From the NCBI GenBank assembly GCA_035399485.1, contig DAOPJC010000002.1:1-40410 (forward strand): a DNA stretch of 40,410 bases, written 5' to 3'. Source of the stretch: Bacilli bacterium. Its GTDB lineage: Bacteria; Bacillota_I; Bacilli_A; RF39; UBA660. The position numbers and the translations under genes were made by a program. Below are positions 8,371-40,362 of this stretch, piece by piece (position 1 is the stretch's first letter; every line of letters begins with the position of its first letter). The notes beneath the pieces are model-generated. The model made no database searches. It was given only the letters and a program-made list of their open reading frames with translations, and was not told where the DNA came from.

Positions 8371-8792
8371 GTTATTAATGGTAATAGAATAATAAATGCA
8401 ACTATTAATATTACTACTATAGCTATAAATATAAAATTCTTTTTATATTTCTTATCTTCATTTACTATTTCTTGTTTTATTTCATATTCATCTAATACTT
8501 CTACTTTTTCTTTATTTGATTCTTTTAATATATCTTCTTCTGTTGCAGTACCACTTGTTACTATATTTGACGTATTTGTTTCTGGTGGTAAATCAGGAGT
8601 TATTGATACATCAGGTAATGGCTTAACCTCATTTTCTACTGGTGACATATCCATTATCAAATCTGGTGTTAGACTATTTTCTACATTGTTTACAGAAACT
8701 TCTGGCATTGGTGTTATAGGTATATCAAGCATAGAATTAATATCTATTAATTCTTCTTGACTATTATCTTTTATTAAATCATTTTCGTTCAT
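8352..8792 (-). CDS. hypothetical tail-anchored acidic protein
   Basis: 146 aa with RBS ggtga. It has an acidic, Pro/Glu-rich N-terminal region and a single C-terminal TM (FIFIAIVVILIVAFIILLPLI). Confidence 0.5.
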   Translation of the reverse strand: MNENDLIKDNSQEELIDINSMLDIPITPMPEVSVNNVENSLTPDLIMDMSPVENEVKPLPDVSITPDLPPETNTSNIVTSGTATEEDILKESNKEKVEVLDEYEIKQEIVNEDKKYKKNFIFIAIVVILIVAFIILLPLITKKIGL

Positions 8793-8796
8793 TTAA

Positions 8797-9407
8797 TCAC
8801 CATTGACAACTATAGTTATTACTTACATATTTATTTGATAATTCATATATATCATCATTATATTCACCAATAACATCTAATTTATCATCTTTCCCCAATT
8901 TCATATCTTTTAAATCTGCATTAACTAAAAGAAATACTTCTGATATTTTTAATGAAGTTGTTCCATCTAAATTTACTTCTATACTATATCCTTTATTAGT
9001 TAAGTTTGAAGTTTTTCTTTGTTTATATTTGCTTTGTTCAGCTAAAATATAATTACTATATTCATCTGTTATACTTGAATATGATATATCTTCTTTAATA
9101 CTTTTTAATTTATTATCTGTATAATATAAATATGCATAAATTGTTTTATCCCCGCCATTATCAGATACCACACTCTTACATGTTAATTTATTTGTACCTG
9201 AAGGTTTTAATATAACATATTTTTCTTCTTCTACCGGTTTAGTTTCTACTTTTTTTGTTTTTTCAAATAAAGTACCACTCTTTAATTTATCAAATGTTTT
9301 ATATATTGGTTTTAAACCAAAAATAAAAATTAATATTATTACTGCTATAAATATAAAAAGTAAAAGATCGTTATTTTTTTCCATATTTAGTCCTGCTTTT
9401 TTCATAT
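8797..9407 (-). CDS. hypothetical N-terminally anchored extracytoplasmic protein
   Basis: Start reassigned to ATG 9407 (AGGAG 7 nt upstream); the track start 9411 is a GTG. N-terminal TM is LLLFIFIAVIILIFIFGL, followed by a soluble domain with Cys near both ends. Confidence 0.5.
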
Positions 9408-9452
9408 GCACTCTCCTATTCTTCTTATATTATATCAAACTTTTATATATTT

Positions 9453-10673
9453 TTATATATTAAAATTACCATTTTTAAATATTAATATTTTACCTTTATC
9501 TGTTGTTGCTTCTATTTCTAAATCTTTGGTACCCACCATAAAATCAACATGTACATTTGAAGAATTTAAGCCATTTTCTTTTAATTCAACTTGACTTAAA
9601 TTTCTACCATTTTTAATACCTACTGGTGAGGCTGCACCAATTGCAAAATGACATGATGCATTCTCATCAAATAATGTCTCATTAAAAACTAAATTAGTAT
9701 TTGATATTGATGAATTATAAGGAACTAAAGCTATTTCACCTAAATATTGTGCTCCTTCATTTTTGTATATCAATGTTTCTAATGTTTTTTGTCCTTCTTT
9801 TGCATAACATGATACAATTTGCCCATCAATAATTTTTAAATAAAAATCATTTATCAATGTATCATTGTAATATAAAGGTCTACTGGAATATACAATACCA
9901 TTTATTTTTCGATAATCTGGTGCAGTAAATATTTCATATGAAGGCATATTAGCAATCATTTGGTTTCCTTTAGCATCTTTTTTATCTAAATTTAACCATA
10001 CATAATCTTTTGGAAGTGCTACTTCTAAATCTGTTCCTAAAGAATTTTTATAATGCATTGTTTTAATATTTAAACTATTAAGAAGATTTTTATAATAATT
10101 ATTCATATTTATATGTTCTTGCCATGCTTTTATTGGATCATTTTTATCAACCATACACATTTTCATAATACTCAAATATAATTTTTCATAAGCATTTTTA
10201 TCATCTTTGAAGATTTGTTTAGCCCATCTTTCATTAGGAAGTGCAACTATACACCAAGGGAATGTATATTTTCTTACATTTCCGCGATAATATTCTGTTG
10301 TCTTTTGTCTTTCTTCTACTAATCTTTGCATTTTTTCTTCTTCAATATCATTCATTAATCCTGGAACAGTAGAATTTAAGAACAATAATGATGCTCCTTT
10401 TTTTGCATAATCGTTCCAATTTGTTCTGTCTGTTAAGTAATTAGGTTTTATGTCTTCTAATTTTGTGTTTTTTAAATAATCATGAATTTCATCTAAATCT
10501 GCCACATTTATACATACATCATATATACCCATTTCATTAGCTCTTTTTTTGACTTTTTCAGCAAAGGTTATATGTTCTTTAAAATCACAATTAATCATTA
10601 AGGATTTCGCTTGTTCGAAATTTAAGCATCTATTTAATATTAAATCTATATATTTACTTTCTAATTCTTCCAT
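9453..10673 (-). CDS. ampS: aminopeptidase, M29 (AmpS/PepS) family
   Basis: About 406 aa. M29-type motifs: GEIALVP, LFDENASCHFAIG, VHVDFMVG. Start set at ATG 10673 behind RBS GAGGTGG, which lies inside the track's 4-codon extension. Confidence 0.8.
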   Translation of the reverse strand: MEELESKYIDLILNRCLNFEQAKSLMINCDFKEHITFAEKVKKRANEMGIYDVCINVADLDEIHDYLKNTKLEDIKPNYLTDRTNWNDYAKKGASLLFLNSTVPGLMNDIEEEKMQRLVEERQKTTEYYRGNVRKYTFPWCIVALPNERWAKQIFKDDKNAYEKLYLSIMKMCMVDKNDPIKAWQEHINMNNYYKNLLNSLNIKTMHYKNSLGTDLEVALPKDYVWLNLDKKDAKGNQMIANMPSYEIFTAPDYRKINGIVYSSRPLYYNDTLINDFYLKIIDGQIVSCYAKEGQKTLETLIYKNEGAQYLGEIALVPYNSSISNTNLVFNETLFDENASCHFAIGAASPVGIKNGRNLSQVELKENGLNSSNVHVDFMVGTKDLEIEATTDKGKILIFKNGNFNI

Positions 10674-10720
10674 AATCCACCTCATTAATTATTTATTATA
10701 ACATATTAAAAAAAATTTGA

Positions 10721-11236
10721 TTAATCAATCTTAATCAAATCTTGTGTTTCTATATATTTTAAAAACTGTTTACTATTTATATTATAACTAGGTTTATTAT
10801 ATTTATAAATATTAATGTCATTATTGCCATTATCTAAAAATTTAACTTTTACGTCTTGTAATAGTTCATTTATTGAATTATATTCATAAATACCTTTATA
10901 TTTTTCCCATGAATGCTCTAACCAATAGTATTTATTCAAATCTTTTGCAACAACAAAGGTATGCGTTTGAAAACTATCATTATTACCTTTACTTATTAAA
11001 TACGAATCACAATCTATATTTTCTTTATTTAGTAAATATCTTTCTAATTCGACTTGATCCCAACAAACACCACATTTTTTTTGTAATAACTCTTCTGGAG
11101 ATAACAAATGATAATGTTTATTAAAATTATCTTGCCAAGTATCCATATTATCAATCATATTATAATTATTAGAGTCTTTAAAACCATATTCTATATGATT
11201 TAGTTCATCCATTATTTTATTAAGTTTTTCTAACAT
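10721..11236 (-). CDS. hypothetical protein, possibly transglutaminase-like/papain-fold (Cys-His)
   Basis: 171 aa. The spacing of KKCGVCWDQVELERYLL ... QTHTFVV ... WLEHSW resembles the Cys/His/acid core of transglutaminase-like proteins. Weak call. Confidence 0.35.
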   Translation of the reverse strand: MLEKLNKIMDELNHIEYGFKDSNNYNMIDNMDTWQDNFNKHYHLLSPEELLQKKCGVCWDQVELERYLLNKENIDCDSYLISKGNNDSFQTHTFVVAKDLNKYYWLEHSWEKYKGIYEYNSINELLQDVKVKFLDNGNNDINIYKYNKPSYNINSKQFLKYIETQDLIKID

Positions 11237-11248
11237 AAATTCACCTAC

Positions 11249-11923
11249 TTAAAGTAATCCTATTATTAAAGCAATATAACCAACTATATTGATTATTGAA
11301 TGAAGTATTATCGATGCAAATACATTTTTATATTTTACATAAAAGGATGTTAGAATTAACGATGGTAGTAAATAATAAAAGAATTCTTCTATTCTAACTA
11401 TATGAATACAATCAAATAAAACTATAGAAATAATAAAAGCAATAACTAAATTAATTTTATTATCTCTCTTATTTATTATAGAGAAGCGAAAAGTCATTTC
11501 TTCTATTACTGGGGCAAATATACAGCCTTGAATAATTGTTAAAATAATTGGTACAGCTATCATTTGTTCTTTTACTGTACTATTATTTTGAGGTAATATA
11601 TCTAATTTTAGTTTACTTGTTAAATATATTAATAATCCTGAAAGAAATAAATCTAATATAAGAAATATTAATATATTTAGCCAAAATTTTCTATTTTTAA
11701 ATTGTTTACTTTTTAATTCTTTCCATTCATTTACTAATTCTTTCTTAAATATGATTATAACTAATATAAATAAAATTACATAAACAATAAGTGAAGCCCA
11801 TTCTTTTGAAACGATTGGAGCTATTATTTCCCATAATCCAAAATTAATTGAGTAAAATAAAATTATTAAAACTAATTCCTTCCACTCATTTTTTACAAAT
11901 TTCATTAATGCATTATCATTCAT
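11249..11923 (-). CDS. CPBP-family intramembrane glutamic endopeptidase (CAAX/Abi)
   Basis: Multi-TM protein with the three CPBP motifs: APVIEEMTFRF (EExxxR), LFDCIH (FxxxH) and LHSIINI (HxxxN). Confidence 0.85.
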   Translation of the reverse strand: MNDNALMKFVKNEWKELVLIILFYSINFGLWEIIAPIVSKEWASLIVYVILFILVIIIFKKELVNEWKELKSKQFKNRKFWLNILIFLILDLFLSGLLIYLTSKLKLDILPQNNSTVKEQMIAVPIILTIIQGCIFAPVIEEMTFRFSIINKRDNKINLVIAFIISIVLFDCIHIVRIEEFFYYLLPSLILTSFYVKYKNVFASIILHSIINIVGYIALIIGLL

Positions 11924-11972
11924 ATTTCACCCCTAAATACTCTATTTATATAGTATTAATTAATATATTATT

Positions 11973-12893
11973 TTAAAATTTAATTAGTTCTATAACTTTA
12001 TTAGCAATATATTCCATGCCTTTATCACCAGGATGAATTGCTACTCCACTATGATCTATTTTATGAGATGTACCATCTTTACCAATTATTGTTGTTCCTA
12101 AACCTGCTTCATATTCTTTTTTATTCCATATTGGAGATAAATCTGCATATGGTATATTTAATTTAGTAGTAACTTTTTTCTTAATGTTCTCTCTTGCTTC
12201 TTTTACCCAGAAATCTCCTACTGCCACAACTTGAGCATTTGGGGCATACTTTTTAACATATTCAATTAATTCTTCTAAATCACTTTCAAATGTATCAATA
12301 TTACTTACATTTTCGCCTAATTGAATAACTACTAAATCTAATTTAAAGTTTAAATATGATTTTATAAGTGGAAGCATTTCCGCACGATCATGTGATTGTA
12401 CTTCCCATGTTGCATAATTGTATGAATACTTATTAACTGGAAGTTTTTGTTTTTCTCCTATTGCTGATGTCACTAAACTAACATAATCTTTTTCTAATGT
12501 AGAAGCAGCCATTCCACGATCATTACTCCACCAGTTGTTATTATAGTCATGTCTTGTAATTGAATTTCCAATATACATAACATTATAATGATCATCATCA
12601 CATTTCTTTAAGTATTCTTTTGCTTCATCATCAATTGAAGGATTCAATTCAGCTATACTAATTTCATCTAATCCAATTTTTTCTGAAATGTCATTAATTT
12701 GATTAGTTTGATCTTTTACAGTTTTTTTCAAAGATTGAATTGTAATAGCTTGCCATATTCCACAACCAATAATTGTTAAAATCAAACATACTATTACGAT
12801 AATTCCTCTCCATGAATTCATTATTGAATTTTTCTTTTTACTATTTTTCTTTTTTGTACTCTTTATATTCTTTACTGCATTCTTTTTTGCCAT
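11973..12893 (-). CDS. membrane-anchored SGNH/GDSL-family hydrolase
   Basis: Lys-rich N-terminus plus one TM. SGNH blocks: MYIGNSIT (block I, Ser present), QLGEN (block III), DHSGVAIHPGDKG (block V Asp/His region). Confidence 0.7.
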   Translation of the reverse strand: MAKKNAVKNIKSTKKKNSKKKNSIMNSWRGIIVIVCLILTIIGCGIWQAITIQSLKKTVKDQTNQINDISEKIGLDEISIAELNPSIDDEAKEYLKKCDDDHYNVMYIGNSITRHDYNNNWWSNDRGMAASTLEKDYVSLVTSAIGEKQKLPVNKYSYNYATWEVQSHDRAEMLPLIKSYLNFKLDLVVIQLGENVSNIDTFESDLEELIEYVKKYAPNAQVVAVGDFWVKEARENIKKKVTTKLNIPYADLSPIWNKKEYEAGLGTTIIGKDGTSHKIDHSGVAIHPGDKGMEYIANKVIELIKF

Positions 12894-35155: not shown

Positions 35156-35677
35156 TTAATCTTTTACTACAACTAATTTTGTTCCTTTAACTTTAGAATT
35201 ATATTTTAATTTATATGTATTTTTTCCATACTTAATTGCTTCTAAAATTTCCTTTAATTCTTCCTTAGCTTTTTCTTTAGTAGCATAGTATCCTAATACT
35301 ATTTCATGGTCACCAAAAAGAAATTGATGTTTATCTACCCCACACAATATACATACTGGAACACCTTTATCTTCTTTTGTAAATGCTATATCTCTTATTA
35401 CAAATTTATATACTGAAGAAACAATACTACTATCTTCACTCTCTATATAAATAGTACTTTGATTATTACTTATTTTTTCTTCTTTACCTAATAATAAATA
35501 ATCTAAAGAAACATCTAATATTTTAGTTAATGATATTAATTTATCTGTTTCAGGATAAAATTCATTACTTTCCCATTTTGATATAGTTTGTCTTGTCACA
35601 TTCAATAAAGCTGCTAATTGTTCTTGCGTTAAATTAGATTTTTTTCTAGTATTAGCTAATCTCTCACCAAAATCCAT
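35156..35677 (-). CDS. XRE-family HTH transcriptional regulator with an uncharacterised C-terminal domain
   Basis: MDFGERLANTRKKSNLTQEQLAALLNVTRQTISKWESNE is an HTH_3 domain. Start at ATG 35677 behind aggagg. Confidence 0.8.
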   Translation of the reverse strand: MDFGERLANTRKKSNLTQEQLAALLNVTRQTISKWESNEFYPETDKLISLTKILDVSLDYLLLGKEEKISNNQSTIYIESEDSSIVSSVYKFVIRDIAFTKEDKGVPVCILCGVDKHQFLFGDHEIVLGYYATKEKAKEELKEILEAIKYGKNTYKLKYNSKVKGTKLVVVKD

Positions 35678-35699
35678 TATTATTCCTCCTAACAAAACA

Positions 35700-35768: not shown

Positions 35769-36506
35769 TTATAATTTTGCGACACTATTTTTATTTAATA
35801 AAGTATTTGAAATAAATTTTTGATTATTAAATACTGCCCAGTTATTAAATATACATGGAACATTTTTTGCTTTTTCTAGACTATCTATTTTAATTAATCT
35901 AATATCTTTTTTTGTTTCTTCGATATATTCATTTGTTTCTTTTATACAGTTCTCTACATAAGGACATTGATTTGTATAATATATTATAATACCTGAATCA
36001 GAAATACTCATTAATTTTACAGATTCAGTAAACTTAGGTTTTTCCTTATCATTAAATGATAAACATAGTAATTCATAATCTCCTAGTGTTTCAATAACTT
36101 CAAATCCATATTTTATAAAGAAAGATTTTTCTGATATAAATGGTTTCTTCTTTTTTGAAGATAATACACATATCCCATTTTTGTTGTTATCTTTGGCATC
36201 TTTAATTGCGTACTCTAATAATTCTTTACCATAACCATTATTTTTATAGCTACCTGCTACCCATAAGCAATATATATAATTATAATTATTTCCTTCAATT
36301 GGTACCCAAGCTTTTTCTAATGGGGCATATTCAATAAACACTTTACCTTGTGCATTTAATTTTCTAAATACATGTCCTTCTTTTATTCTATCTTTTAACC
36401 ATTCTTTTTTTGCTAATACGCCTTGTTCATGTTTTTTATCACTTATTGCGCAACATAAGTGCTCATTACTAATATTTTCTAATGTTATATTTATATATTC
36501 ATTCAT
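35769..36506 (-). CDS. GNAT N-acetyltransferase with a YoaP-like C-terminal domain
   Basis: GNAT core is LWVAGSYKNNGYGKELLEYAIKDAK. C-terminal IIIYYTNQCPYVENC is the YoaP-like thioredoxin-fold signature. Confidence 0.7.
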   Translation of the reverse strand: MNEYINITLENISNEHLCCAISDKKHEQGVLAKKEWLKDRIKEGHVFRKLNAQGKVFIEYAPLEKAWVPIEGNNYNYIYCLWVAGSYKNNGYGKELLEYAIKDAKDNNKNGICVLSSKKKKPFISEKSFFIKYGFEVIETLGDYELLCLSFNDKEKPKFTESVKLMSISDSGIIIYYTNQCPYVENCIKETNEYIEETKKDIRLIKIDSLEKAKNVPCIFNNWAVFNNQKFISNTLLNKNSVAKL

Positions 36507-36528
36507 TTATTTCTTACTCCTTTATAAA

Positions 36529-36552
36529 AAGTCTACTAATCAGTAGACTTTT
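36529..36552 (-). terminator. terminator closing the signal-peptidase operon
   Basis: Stem agtctact / agtagact with loop aatc, flanked by A/T runs so it is bidirectional in form. It overlaps the stop codon at 36536. Confidence 0.55.
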
Positions 36553-37597
36553 TTTCATTATCTAATAAATATTGATACAAAATGTTATTATGTATTAATG
36601 TAAATTCACCTTTAATATTTTCCTCTATTTCATAAAACATTATTGGTATTCTCAATTCTTCCTCTAAATCTACCATTTCATTAAAATTCTTAACTAATAT
36701 TATTTCATAATTACTCTTGTCTACTTGATCAATTACTTCTATTATTATATCACCATATTCTTTTAATATTTTATTTAATCCTATAGTATATAATGTTTTT
36801 GGTGGTATGTTAAATATTATTTTATATAAAGCCACAATTAGAATTACTGAACATATTAAAGATATAATTCCACAAGTTAATTTTCTATAATCTAGGCTTT
36901 CTATTTCAGTATTAACAAATATATTTTGATTTTTTGTTTCAACATATTCAGCATTAATTTTAAATGCTTGTTGATTTAATGGAATTGTTAATACTTGCTC
37001 TGATGAATCATATATTTTACTTGGATTATTTTTAGATTGAACAGTAACTGCCATTTTAACAATTAAATTTGCATTTATTGGTAGTTTTAATTCTTTTCTA
37101 AAAGTTGTTACTTCTCCATCATAATTATGAAAATCTAAACTTACTTTTTCTTTAATTGTAAATTGAGAAGTATCAGTTAATTCTTTTGATGTTGATTCTA
37201 CAAAAGTATATTTTTTGGTCCATACCTTTGATTTAGAATTTTCTTCATCTAATTTATAATCACCATAAATTGTTCCTAATATACTATATTTATATATTAA
37301 TGGTTCTACTGTCGTACCTGAATAATTATAAGTAAATGTAGGAACAATAGTACTTATTAAATCAGCTATGTAGGTTTCGTTTTTACCTAAATGATCTTCT
37401 TCTATAAAACTATTTTTATATAAATTTACTACATAATCTAGATTCTGACCTACATGATATGTATATTCTATTTCTTTATTCTTTTTAGTATTCCAATTGA
37501 CACTTTTTATTATAAGATTGCAAGATACTATGAAAACAGCGATTATAGCAAAAAAGATAGCTATTCGTACCCATTTTTTTAACACTCTCTTTTTCAT
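36536..37597 (-). CDS. bitopic membrane protein, DUF5305-like (family typically adjacent to SipW-type peptidases)
   Basis: 353 aa. TM1 is WVRIAIFFAIIAVFIVSC. A roughly 210-aa beta-rich external region follows, then TM2 LTCGIISLICSVILIVALYKIIF and a roughly 90-aa cytoplasmic tail. RBS agaggtg. The family assignment is from memory of that architecture, not a search. Confidence 0.5.
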   Translation of the reverse strand: MKKRVLKKWVRIAIFFAIIAVFIVSCNLIIKSVNWNTKKNKEIEYTYHVGQNLDYVVNLYKNSFIEEDHLGKNETYIADLISTIVPTFTYNYSGTTVEPLIYKYSILGTIYGDYKLDEENSKSKVWTKKYTFVESTSKELTDTSQFTIKEKVSLDFHNYDGEVTTFRKELKLPINANLIVKMAVTVQSKNNPSKIYDSSEQVLTIPLNQQAFKINAEYVETKNQNIFVNTEIESLDYRKLTCGIISLICSVILIVALYKIIFNIPPKTLYTIGLNKILKEYGDIIIEVIDQVDKSNYEIILVKNFNEMVDLEEELRIPIMFYEIEENIKGEFTLIHNNILYQYLLDNEKKSTD

Positions 37598-37611: not shown

Positions 37612-38790
37612 TTAAGTTTCAACTTCTACCTTTGTTTTATTAAATATTTCATTTAATAATACTGCGGCATAGCCTATTTTTGGAACTTTAAATTGTACTA
37701 TTGATATTATTTGATCTTTATATACTGGTTTTATATCATTTGCATTATTATGATCACCCTTGGTAATAAAGTAAATTTCTCCTTTTGTTGTTTTTTTAAT
37801 ATCAACTATTCTATGAACAACAATATAAGTATCTAGCTTATATTCTATTATATCATTTATTCTTAAATTTTCTTTTTCTTCATCTTTAATTTTTTTGACT
37901 ACTACTACATCTCCACGTTTTATCAAATCAGCCATACTATTTGACATTATTGCAACTGGCATATAAGTTAATATACCTGCAACAAACGCTACAAATATTA
38001 ATAAAAATATTATGAATGGAGCTTGCTTAATAGGATTACTTTTTCTTATTTCTCTTCTTGAATCTCTAAACATTCTTCTTTCCTGAATATAATTTATAAA
38101 CAAGAAAGTGATAAATGGTACTAGTAAATCAATAATTGCTACTATAAACCATTCCAAATTTGGAAATAATGGCATAAATAATGTTGTTAGTATTACTGGG
38201 ATTCTATAACATAAGTTACAACCATATCCACCTACAACAGCTAAATATGTAAACAATATATTTTTTACTAAGACAGGTAATATAAATGAAGATATGTATT
38301 GAAATCCTGCTTCTAAATCAACAAAATTATCACCTATTTTATAAAAGCTTATTTCCGCACAAGTAAATATTAAAACTATTAATATATAATTAAACATTTT
38401 ATGTTTGCCTGATGGAAGCATAGCTTCTCTTATATATTCTTGAAAGAAAATAATGATTACAAAACCCCATATATTTTTTATTACTGATATTAACTCATGA
38501 CTATATGGTGATCTCTCATAACCAAAGAATATACCTAAAAAGAAATAAATAAATAAATATAACATTGTTATTATTAATACTGTTTGAGTTTTTTCTGTTT
38601 TAGCCCTTAATCTTCTTTTCTCTGAATAATTTAGTATTAAAGAAAAAATAAACATATTCATCCAAAACAATGGATTTACTATATAATTATAATCGAATTT
38701 TTTACTATCAATTAATAATATAGAAAATACTATTATATATATAATTAAAAAACTATAAACCAATACATTTTTAATATTAATATTTTTCAT
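37612..38790 (-). CDS. fusion of a ~8-TM domain of unknown function to a SipW (ER/archaeal)-type S26 signal peptidase
   Basis: 392 aa. Residues 1-~250 are polytopic with about 8 hydrophobic segments. The C-terminal ~135 aa carry AIMSNSMADLIKRGDVVVV (SxSM Ser box), YIVVHRIVDI (the xTHRI His box of SipW) and ITKGDHNNANDI (the TKGDNN box). Confidence 0.75.
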   Translation of the reverse strand: MKNINIKNVLVYSFLIIYIIVFSILLIDSKKFDYNYIVNPLFWMNMFIFSLILNYSEKRRLRAKTEKTQTVLIITMLYLFIYFFLGIFFGYERSPYSHELISVIKNIWGFVIIIFFQEYIREAMLPSGKHKMFNYILIVLIFTCAEISFYKIGDNFVDLEAGFQYISSFILPVLVKNILFTYLAVVGGYGCNLCYRIPVILTTLFMPLFPNLEWFIVAIIDLLVPFITFLFINYIQERRMFRDSRREIRKSNPIKQAPFIIFLLIFVAFVAGILTYMPVAIMSNSMADLIKRGDVVVVKKIKDEEKENLRINDIIEYKLDTYIVVHRIVDIKKTTKGEIYFITKGDHNNANDIKPVYKDQIISIVQFKVPKIGYAAVLLNEIFNKTKVEVET

Positions 38791-38797
38791 ACTTCAC

Positions 38798-39640
38798 CTA
38801 TTTCCCTTTTGCATTAGAAATTATAGGGTTTATTGTTTGTTCTGTTGAGGATAATTGAAAATCTATTGTAATACTTGCTCCTGCCCCTATTTGACCATTC
38901 CAATCTTTATTAGAAACAGTAATTATTCCATTTTCTGTATCAATATAATTTGAATTCCACATACCTTCAATCTTAGTACTTGATGATACTCCCATATCAA
39001 AACTCCAAGATGTTATAGGTTCAGTAGTATTATTTGTTAAAGTCACATTATATTGAAAAACTTTTTTATTATCTCCACCTGGCCAACTATTTGCAAGAGT
39101 TATTGAAGAAGATAATTCTTTTGCAGGAATTTGTGGATTATCTCCGCCACTTCCACCTTTATTTGTATCTTTAAATATTTTAATATTATCTAATTCTAAA
39201 TTTTCTGTTGGTGTACTAAACATTACTCCTAAACTAACTTCTACATTAGGAGCCAATAAAGAATCATAATCTAAATTCTTTAAAGTTAATACATTTCCCG
39301 ATGCTGTTGCACTGACATTCCAGAAAGATAAATTTTGAATTTCATCTGGCATTTCTATATCAATGCTCCAACCATCTATATCTTTTGAAGATTTATTTAC
39401 TATTTTTATTTCAAATTTATAATATCTATCTCCATTTTCATTATACCATGTATTTTTAATATATGTAAATTCTATATCATCAGTTATTTCTACTTTTTCT
39501 ACTAAATTACCTTTTCCTGTTAGTGATAGATTTTGATATAAATAAGAATAACCTACACTTATAAATAATAAAGTACACGTAAAAATTATAATTAAATGAT
39601 GTAATTCTAATCTTTTATGAATTTTTCTTTTCTTTTTCAT
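38798..39640 (-). CDS. secreted or anchored protein with two CBM2-like beta-sandwich domains
   Basis: 280 aa. The N-terminal anchor ends in ISVGYSYLYQNLSLTGKGNL. Domain 1 reads IKIVNKSSKDIDGWSIDIEMP...FWNVSATASGNVLTLKNLDYDSLLAPN...LGVMFS. A GGSGGDNPQ linker follows. Domain 2 reads VTLTNNTTEPITSWSFDMG...MWNSNYIDTENGIITVSNKDWNGQIGAGASITIDFQLS. Confidence 0.55.
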   Translation of the reverse strand: MKKKRKIHKRLELHHLIIIFTCTLLFISVGYSYLYQNLSLTGKGNLVEKVEITDDIEFTYIKNTWYNENGDRYYKFEIKIVNKSSKDIDGWSIDIEMPDEIQNLSFWNVSATASGNVLTLKNLDYDSLLAPNVEVSLGVMFSTPTENLELDNIKIFKDTNKGGSGGDNPQIPAKELSSSITLANSWPGGDNKKVFQYNVTLTNNTTEPITSWSFDMGVSSSTKIEGMWNSNYIDTENGIITVSNKDWNGQIGAGASITIDFQLSSTEQTINPIISNAKGK

Positions 39641-39651
39641 ATTATCTACCC

Positions 39652-39682
39652 CTAAAAAAATAAGGCAAAAAACTTTGCCTTT
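39652..39682 (-). terminator. intra-operon terminator after the first gene
   Basis: Stem aaggcaaa / tttgcctt with a 4-nt loop, followed on the minus strand by ATTTTTTT. It lies between stop 39700 and the RBS of the next gene. Confidence 0.65.
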
Positions 39683-39699: not shown

Positions 39700-40224
39700 C
39701 TATGCAGTTTTTTGTACGAAATTTAAATTAATTGTTGCTGTTTTAGTTGTTGTTGTTGGTATTGTATCTGGATGTTCTGGATCTGTTGAAGCAACCCAAG
39801 TAACTGTTACTAATACTTTTTTAGAAACTTGTGAATCTAAAGAATCATTAGCAGCCATACCTGTTACGGCATATTGAATTTCTACTGGAGCAGTAGTATT
39901 AGCTGTGTCTACTCCTGTAATACTTTCAAGTGTCGCATCAATTGAACCTTTGTTTTCAACAGTAATTTCATATGTTGCTGTTGCACCAGGATATTGTAAA
40001 TCTACTTCGAAGCTTGCACTTGTACCAGTTGCAGTAATTTCTCCAACTGTTGTAGCTCCTGTCATAGTTTTTTCAGCAATATCAGTAAATTCAATATTCC
40101 AACTTGCATTGATATTTGATTTACCATTAATTACTAATTGTTGTGCTAATGCTGCGTAACCAACTGACATACCAACTATTGCTACGATTAAAGCAACAAT
40201 TACTATATTTCTTTTATTTATCAT
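39700..40224 (-). CDS. small secreted Thr/Ala-rich beta-sandwich protein, TasA/camelysin-like (putative major structural subunit)
   Basis: 174 aa with strong RBS aggagg. N-terminal anchor is IVIVALIVAIVGMSVGYAALAQQLVINGKSNI. The core FEVDLQYPGATATYEITVENKGSIDATL recalls the TasA/camelysin pattern (...L.PGD......N.GS.D..L). There are no Cys residues. Confidence 0.5.
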   Translation of the reverse strand: MINKRNIVIVALIVAIVGMSVGYAALAQQLVINGKSNINASWNIEFTDIAEKTMTGATTVGEITATGTSASFEVDLQYPGATATYEITVENKGSIDATLESITGVDTANTTAPVEIQYAVTGMAANDSLDSQVSKKVLVTVTWVASTDPEHPDTIPTTTTKTATINLNFVQKTA

Positions 40225-40335: not shown

Positions 40336-40362
40336 CAAAAAAAGCATGTTTATACATGCTTA
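40336..40362 (-). terminator. terminator of an upstream minus-strand gene lying mostly outside the window
   Basis: Stem aagcatgt / acatgctt with loop ttat. A T7 run follows on the minus strand. It insulates the 39700-40224 gene from upstream transcription. Confidence 0.6.

Follow-up and report, generated by a model that had tools for sequence, protein, structure and literature searches.

The window analysed here is a stretch of 40,410 nucleotides (nt) from a Bacilli bacterium (Bacillota_I; Bacilli_A; RF39; UBA660), covering positions 1 to 40,410 of contig DAOPJC010000002.1 in assembly GCA_035399485.1. On its minus strand, at 37612–38790, lies a gene for a 392-residue protein in which an archaeal-type signal peptidase follows a large additional membrane domain. 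The gene is a single uninterrupted open reading frame (ORF) running from ATG to TAA (stop codon at 37612–37614), and it belongs to a tight cluster of four genes read in the same direction. The first encodes a 174-residue protein (39700–40224), assigned by a profile of neighbouring proteins compared with AbpX to the AbpX/TasA superfamily of fibre subunits and the putative main substrate of the peptidase. After a gap of 59 nt comes a 280-residue CBM2/CBM49 protein (38798–39640), a putative minor or tip subunit and further substrate according to its CBM_2 match (E 9.8e-23) and N-terminal signature. The peptidase gene follows after 7 nt and, 14 nt further on, a gene for a 353-residue DUF5305 protein (36536–37597; PF17231, E 5.4e-17), a putative accessory subunit of the peptidase. 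The fusion gene very probably encodes the dedicated type I signal peptidase of this AbpX/TasA-like donor-strand fibre operon.

Three parts can be distinguished in the peptidase. The N-terminal domain (N-domain), residues 1–250 (38041–38790), is delimited by its AlphaFold2 model and by the lack of any library match, and the same model places eight transmembrane (TM) helices in it, at residues 6–25, 31–53, 64–89, 100–124, 131–146, 159–187, 189–205 and 214–240, together with two short outer-face strands at residues 91–93 and 208–210. Next comes an Arg/Lys-rich cytoplasmic linker with a ninth helix (residues 251–277, 37960–38040), recognised from hydropathy, the AlphaFold2 model and the positive-inside rule as the N-in/C-out anchor of the peptidase. 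The S26 catalytic domain (residues 278–392, 37615–37959) completes the protein and is identified by TIGR02228, its invariant residues and Foldseek. Hydropathy and two AlphaFold2 models agree on eight helices between residues 6 and 240 and one more at residues 253–273, the latter preceded by RRMFRDSRREIRK. In the topology predicted from the sequence, the N-terminus and the end of helix 8 would lie inside and helix 9 would cross outward. This direction follows from the alternating charges of the loops and would place the S26 domain on the extracytoplasmic side.

The catalytic module is readily classified. Residues 260–381 match the NCBIfam model TIGR02228 for archaeal-type signal peptidase I with 79 bits (cut-off 51.85), the score for Pfam PF10502 stays below threshold (19 bits against 22.9), and the SipW equivalog NF046067 is not reached (62.4 bits, cut-off 190). 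Across 231 aligned full-length relatives, Ser285, Met286, His326, Arg327, Asp346 and Asp352 are invariant, each in 231/231; the codons of the catalytic set lie on the minus strand at 37936–37938 (Ser285), 37813–37815 (His326), 37753–37755 (Asp346) and 37735–37737 (Asp352). The serine stands in an S-M motif, the general base is the histidine of an HR motif and not a lysine, and the aspartate belongs to a GDxNxxxD box. Foldseek searches with the full-length model gave the human proteins SEC11C and SEC11A as the best matches in the PDB (7p2q_A, E 9.7e-4; 7p2p_A, E 2.6e-3), with TM-scores of 0.56–0.57 when normalised to the target. By sequence, the C-terminal module is thus an archaeal or endoplasmic reticulum-type (Sec11/SipW) Ser-His-Asp peptidase of family S26, with predicted cleavage activity. 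A first-pass annotation, made from the letters alone, had described the gene as a SipW-type signal peptidase with a roughly 250-residue, eight-TM N-terminal extension, and TIGR02228, hydropathy and the AlphaFold2 models bear this out. All the motifs that it quoted are present (SNSM at 283–286, VVHRIV at 324–329, TKGDHNNAND at 343–352, FFQEYIREAM at 115–124 and GGYGCNLCYR at 187–196). The serine box calls for one precision: the catalytic serine is Ser285, directly before the methionine, rather than Ser283, because Ser285 is kept in 231/231 relatives while position 283 varies between Ser and Thr. A hydrophobic C-terminal segment after the KGDxN box was found in 0/227 relatives, so the family is considered to be without the C-terminal TM helix of SipW.

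The fusion itself is conserved and intact, and is neither a frameshift nor an assembly artefact. A word-indexed search returned 339 homologues of the fusion protein; the best 120 of these are 325–400 residues long, all but one reaching at least 366 residues, and nearly all cover 89–100% of the query. The few named homologues carry the label "signal peptidase I [Bacilli bacterium]". An exhaustive search of 1.84 billion representatives of clusters at 50% identity, with a profile built from just the N-domain, matched 1465 proteins at E ≤ 1e-3, of which 1067 pass E ≤ 1e-10. Nearly all of the 150 best matches are fusions of about 380 residues; the short ones break off within a hydrophobic segment and are fragments. 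In a scan of species-representative genomes, 484 relatives were confirmed, of which the 80 best loci all belong to uncultured Bacilli, "Tenericutes/Mollicutes", Clostridia or Christensenellales-type metagenome-assembled genomes, mostly from the gut. The survey of its spread proposed in the first-pass annotation therefore yields 1465 N-domain clusters, nearly always fused to S26. Among the species-representative genomes listed, the closest relative of the window's peptidase shows 41% identity, and metagenome proteins reach 99% and 66%; either the lineage of the window is thinly represented or closer genomes fall outside the matches listed.

Two genes artificially joined by a frameshift or assembly error would be a trivial explanation of the extension, and one database entry is in fact split: P0178 (244 residues), on a 1.6-kb contig of 1.98x coverage and followed by a 116-residue ORF, where a frameshift is the probable cause. 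For the window itself nothing points that way. Its ORF is continuous, and hundreds of independent full-length homologues come from different samples and assemblers, which makes the probability of an artefact practically negligible. The N-domain was also sought as a separate gene, a check that the first-pass annotation had suggested for the surroundings of sipW homologues. No such gene was found, and a search with 14 divergent N-domains gave back 13 proteins, all of them fused peptidases, and no annotated relative or archaeal member; the entry on the low-coverage contig was the sole candidate. In another entry (P0252, 655 residues; L086, 705–2672), a CBM2 protein, the N-domain and the peptidase are called as one gene. 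The translation of that locus differs from the recorded protein, and instead of a true triple fusion the entry may represent read-through, another genetic code or an error.

The N-domain stands outside the known families. Residues 1–250 have no match in Pfam or NCBIfam in a scan of the whole protein, and 30 member N-domains scanned singly gave nothing consistent in these libraries and no PF02517 hit at E ≤ 10; an N-domain profile likewise had 0 matches at E ≤ 10 among all PDB sequences. For exosortases and archaeosortases, NCBIfam gave no match at E ≤ 1, and their Cys-Arg-His triad has no counterpart: residues 1–250 of the 231-sequence alignment contain no conserved His, Cys or Ser. The earlier remark that CPBP and exosortase motifs do not fit the extension is thus upheld. 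Several positions in this region are very strictly kept, namely Gly86 (230/231), Asn106 (231/231), Glu118 (228/231) and Arg121 (226/231), along with Tyr182, Pro207 and Pro210, and less strictly Tyr195, Arg196, Pro95, Tyr96 and Trp214. Three of these residues lie in a TM4 segment whose codons were checked (38428–38475, minus strand): Asn106 at 38473–38475, Glu118 at 38437–38439 and Arg121 at 38428–38430. The polar or charged intramembrane positions noted at first reading are therefore real for Asn106, Glu118, Arg121, Tyr182, Tyr195 and Arg196, although neither Cys of GGYGCNLCYR is conserved. Judging from the modelled helices, helices 4, 6 and 7 would carry Glu118, Arg121, Tyr182, Tyr195 and Arg196 in their cytoplasmic halves, and Asn106, the Pro/Tyr/Trp-rich loops and the strands at 91–93 and 208–210 would face the outer side, level with the S26 active site.

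Structure gives a clue that sequence does not. The AlphaFold2 model of the N-domain alone, computed from 132 diverse sequences, is of high confidence (predicted local distance difference test score, pLDDT, 94.4; predicted template modelling score 0.91). Foldseek found one credible neighbour for it in the PDB, the archaeal CAAX protease MmRce1 (4cad_C), with a probability of 0.98, a TM-score of 0.49, a root-mean-square deviation of 6.7 Å and an E-value of 0.13 in an alignment of 280 columns (250 and 251 residues). The matches that follow have probabilities of at most 0.38 and TM-scores of at most 0.28, and the full-length model yields the same 4cad match. An Rce1-like fold is the somewhat favoured assignment from these models, so that the poor fit to CPBP stands for the motifs and would give way at the level of the fold. 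The motif comparison is unambiguous: E118-x-x-R121 takes the place of EExxxR, and both FxxxH and HxxxN/D are missing. Position 117 varies (Q/K/I/E/R), and position 146, which follows Phe142, is Asn, Glu or Asp where CPBP proteins have His. The window also contains a genuine CPBP/Rce1-like protein (11249–11923, minus strand; PF02517, E 1.1e-14), with intact EExxxR, FxxxH and HxxxN motifs and clearly distinct from the N-domain. Its sequence served to build the CPBP profile with which the N-domain was compared. Two independent hhalign runs, neither of them significant, both placed FQEyiR on the CPBP segment IEEmtFR. Such sequence tests of kinship with Rce1 are weak because the CPBP profile itself fails to reach Rce1 in the PDB.

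The resemblance raises the question of whether the N-domain could be a second active intramembrane protease, a histidine-less offshoot of CPBP/Rce1 that uses Glu118 with Arg121 and/or Asn106. Such an enzyme might act as a built-in signal-peptide peptidase that degrades the released peptide, or it might cut the precursor a second time. The Rce1-like fold speaks for this idea, as does the near-invariance of Glu118, Arg121 and Asn106, at the level of the S26 catalytic residues. The glutamate and arginine also occupy TM4, the helix that carries the EExxxR motif of Rce1 in 4CAD. In that structure, the active-site cavity of Rce1 is in the region matching the cytoplasmic halves of the N-domain's helices 4, 6 and 7. 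However, the histidines of FxxxH and HxxxN/D are an established catalytic requirement in Rce1, and both motifs are absent here, with no conserved His in the region. The spacing is ExxR rather than EExxxR, position 117 varies, and the 30 members scanned show no PF02517 signal. Three natural members even lack Glu118 and keep the S26 catalytic residues. A second catalytic domain, one of three roles suggested by the first-pass annotation, is thus possible but held to be rather improbable, as the N-domain lacks the catalytic histidines of CPBP proteins.

A conduit for polymer export was another of the suggested roles, and a polytopic domain with conserved intramembrane polar residues might be imagined as a transporter for subunits or polysaccharide. 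Foldseek offers one weak match of this kind, the nucleotide-sugar transporter 5oge (probability 0.38, TM-score 0.28). The N-domain shows no sequence likeness and no credible structural likeness to any transporter family, and the conserved operon of the related loci contains no polysaccharide-synthesis genes. Since the substrates carry ordinary Sec-type signal peptides, which account for their export, the conduit finds no support and is regarded as very improbable.

The genes around the peptidase indicate what it is likely to cleave. In the related loci, one to four tandem genes for proteins of 165–200 residues stand upstream of the peptidase gene; such subunit-like genes were recognised in 68/85 loci, many loci being cut by contig ends. 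These small proteins begin with a Lys-rich n-region, followed by a core of some 14 hydrophobic residues and a highly conserved V-G-Y-(A/S), after which comes A-(F/L)-(A/S)-x-x-L-x-I-x-G-T-A…W-(D/N)-V. The signals are of the classical n-h-c Sec type, with small residues in positions −3 and −1. The profile built from 118 of the small neighbours aligned with AbpX of Pyrodictium abyssi with an hhalign probability of 95.7% and a hidden Markov model score of 40 bits, the AbpX sequence being taken from the supplement of a January 2026 preprint (bioRxiv 10.64898/2026.01.04.697558). In this alignment GYA|AF falls on TYA|QW, where the preprint puts the start of the mature AbpX protein and of its donor strand (bioRxiv 10.64898/2026.01.04.697558). 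The predicted cuts in the window thus fall after Ala24 of the 174-residue subunit (…SVGYA|ALAQQLVING) and after Ser32 of the CBM2 protein (…SVGYS|YLYQNLSLTG). The roughly 20 conserved residues behind the hydrophobic region had been considered as a pro-segment, an idea that was dropped because the AbpX alignment identifies them as the mature donor strand, with cleavage at GYA|. A search of the 174-residue subunit against PDB sequences gave a chance match only. CBM2 proteins with a signal and donor strand of the subunit type occur in the window (38798–39640, minus strand) and in two other loci (L003, 6874–7992; L004, 4508–5626). CBM2/CBM49 modules bind cellulose or chitin, and the protein probably sits at the fibre tip or serves as a minor subunit, which would give the fibre a hold on plant fibre or chitin in the gut.

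A constant feature of the operon is the DUF5305 gene, which encodes a membrane protein and of which a homologue lies directly downstream on the same strand in 84/84 related loci. An accessory role for DUF5305 proteins has been proposed previously (bioRxiv 10.64898/2026.01.04.697558; PMC11821415). The N-domain and DUF5305 may form an assembly platform or anchor, which would hold the base of the fibre, or the acceptor groove of its last subunit, beside the peptidase so that each new donor strand is handed straight into the fibre; the domain would then couple cleavage to polymerisation rather than recognise signal peptides. The constant pairing fits this picture, as do the start of the donor strand exactly at the predicted cleavage site and the conservation of the outer-face strands and loops (Pro95, Tyr96, Pro207, Pro210, Trp214). 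Yet mature AbpX produced as a recombinant protein needs no machinery to assemble in vitro (bioRxiv 10.64898/2026.01.04.697558), and by the predicted topology most of the conserved polar residues lie in the cytoplasmic half of the membrane, away from the fibre. An assembly platform is held to be rather improbable.

The alternative, and the preferred explanation, is that the N-domain is a non-catalytic docking or scaffold module, a tentative first choice among the roles considered. Substrate docking, the third role put forward at first reading, is also the best supported of the three, although by inference. The peptidase would cut the AbpX-like and CBM2 subunits after GYA|, freeing an N-terminal donor strand for polymerisation by strand complementation. 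The N-domain, with an Rce1/CPBP-like fold that would have lost its catalytic histidines, would act as a non-catalytic membrane module that binds the signal-peptide helix from the side, within the lipid bilayer, and positions the cleavage site for Ser285 and His326. The outer-face loops and Asn106 would then lie near the cleavage site, and Glu118, Arg121, Tyr182, Tyr195 and Arg196 near the Lys-rich n-region. The domain would also replace the C-terminal TM helix that SipW possesses and this family lacks, and by docking DUF5305 it would form a bacterial equivalent of the eukaryotic signal peptidase complex with its several subunits.

As a whole, the combination of a fibre peptidase with an Rce1-fold docking module is given a probability of about 0.4–0.5, and several observations weigh against it. 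Asn106, Glu118 and Arg121 are as strictly conserved as the S26 catalytic residues, a degree of constancy seen more often at sites of catalysis or ligand binding than in a passive scaffold; confidence was held at this level because their conservation suits such a site equally well. The Rce1 match is borderline by its TM-score, E-value and deviation, the resemblance could be convergence between eight-helix bundles, and hhalign comparisons of the N-domain with the CPBP profile are not significant (0.6% in the global run, 1.7% in the local run and 3.0% in another). The relative placement of the two domains is modelled unreliably, with pLDDT below 50 for residues 273–287 of the full-length model, and the clustering of the conserved N-domain residues is deduced from helix topology. 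The percentages of the substrate consensus partly reflect the regular expression with which the sequences were gathered. Members of the family, moreover, are known from sequence and prediction.

A comparison with known systems places the enzyme more precisely. SipW has about 190 residues, with one N-terminal and one C-terminal TM helix. The window's peptidase has eight additional N-terminal helices, lacks the C-terminal one and is partnered by DUF5305 rather than TapA. With SipW of the tapA-sipW-tasA operon of B. subtilis, and with Sec11, it shares the Ser-His-Asp chemistry of S26 and the motifs SxSM, HR and GDxNxxxD. Like SipW, it is assigned to a TasA-superfamily subunit with an aromatic or hydrophobic P2′ residue at the mature N-terminus, as described for TasA (PMC10269814). 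The closest description is that of the January 2026 preprint, which reports a structurally distinct "ten-TM" signal peptidase I, instead of the two-TM type, at bacterial and archaeal abpX loci, for example WP_338249487.1 of P. abyssi (bioRxiv 10.64898/2026.01.04.697558). The same work notes that AbpX loci often encode DUF5305, read as an accessory subunit of the signal peptidase and sometimes fused to it; it devotes one sentence to this peptidase type, with no analysis of the extra helices and no mention of Rce1 (bioRxiv 10.64898/2026.01.04.697558). Both enzymes are of the TIGR02228 type, have a large polytopic part, adjoin AbpX-like subunits and DUF5305, and occur in Bacillota. By prediction, the window's enzyme would differ in having nine helices (eight plus one) and no C-terminal helix, and the two are likened by description and locus content.

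Genetic evidence from the haloarchaeal tafi system shows that processing of the subunit TafA requires the S26 peptidase TafD, which is paired with the DUF5305 protein TafG (PMC11821415). Both systems thus encode an S26 peptidase and DUF5305 together with donor-strand subunits of the TasA superfamily (PMC11821415; PMC12337348), but TafD lacks an eight-TM N-domain, having instead four TM helices and a second domain outside the cytoplasm, and tafi subunits use the Tat pathway. The N-domain and Rce1/CPBP (Abi, PF02517; 4CAD) are both eight-TM bundles of about 250 residues, and in both TM4 carries a conserved Glu and a conserved Arg close to the cytoplasm. In the eukaryotic signal peptidase complex (SEC11 with SPC22/23, SPC25 and SPC12; 7P2P/7P2Q), a Sec11-type subunit is likewise ringed by extra helices and accessory subunits, and the preprint has drawn a functional analogy between DUF5305 and this complex (bioRxiv 10.64898/2026.01.04.697558). 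The accessory parts show no detectable homology, and in the present family the extra helices are fused in cis.

Other features of the locus concern its expression and surroundings. A terminator-like hairpin lies on the minus strand at 39662–39681, between the gene of the major subunit and those downstream, and may be an attenuator that sets the stoichiometry of subunit to machinery. A palindromic terminator-like hairpin without assigned strand, at 36526–36553 at the end of the DUF5305 gene, probably marks the end of the operon. With a further one at 40342–40361, these hairpins bracket the operon; six sites of the kind were found, with 0.6 expected in shuffled sequences. Just downstream of the operon, on the minus strand, are genes for a GNAT acetyltransferase with a C-terminal YoaP-like domain (35769–36506) and an XRE-family helix-turn-helix protein (35156–35695), neither of which is conserved across the related loci. 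In three related loci, type IV pilin-like genes with the N-terminus KGFTLVEL lie a few kb from the operon (L001, 10368–10979; L006, 10666–11031; L060, 857–1847). For BsaA, a matrix protein of C. perfringens, type IV pili-associated secretion has been reported (PMC11580942). The pilin-like neighbours recall this case, an analogy that may be a coincidence. In one Clostridia metagenome-assembled genome (L036), two large proteins downstream of DUF5305 (8390–10678, 762 residues; 10722–12803, 693 residues) carry the subunit signal and donor-strand signature and are possibly adhesin-type subunits.

A peptidase of this type has already been remarked upon in the 2026 preprint, and the fibre system is known. 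The present analysis adds the size and taxonomic range of the family, the DUF5305 pairing, the substrate signature, the nine helices without a C-terminal one, the invariant residues, and the resemblance to Rce1 together with the failed CPBP tests. Beyond the first-pass annotation, it is the AbpX/TasA-like operon with its obligatory DUF5305 partner, the likeness to the Rce1 fold and the mention in the preprint that are new. A bolder reading, itself doubtful, is that the N-domain is an undescribed histidine-less branch of Rce1/CPBP with an essential site of its own (Asn106, Glu118, Arg121). Together with DUF5305, it would make the peptidase a self-contained bacterial "signal peptidase complex", acting either as a second intramembrane protease for signal-peptide clearance or by mechanically coupling cleavage to polymerisation. 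If true, this would be a minimal assembly machine for filaments thought to need none.

Donor-strand fibres of the TasA/AbpX type are an emerging biofilm-matrix system that spans the domains of life and has been described as chaperone-free. The locus type analysed here indicates that among uncultured gut Bacilli, Mollicutes-like bacteria and Clostridia many encode fibres of this kind, that of the window with a CBM2 subunit, and in the related loci the fibre genes always come with the enlarged peptidase and its DUF5305 partner. Found in 1465 clusters at 50% identity, the eight-helix domain is widespread as well as large and strictly conserved, and neither Pfam nor NCBIfam has a model for it. It merits a family model of its own, as the genes are now annotated merely as "signal peptidase I". 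Knowledge of its role would explain how substrates are selected and whether cleavage is coupled to assembly, and would give a first function to a histidine-less Rce1-like fold.

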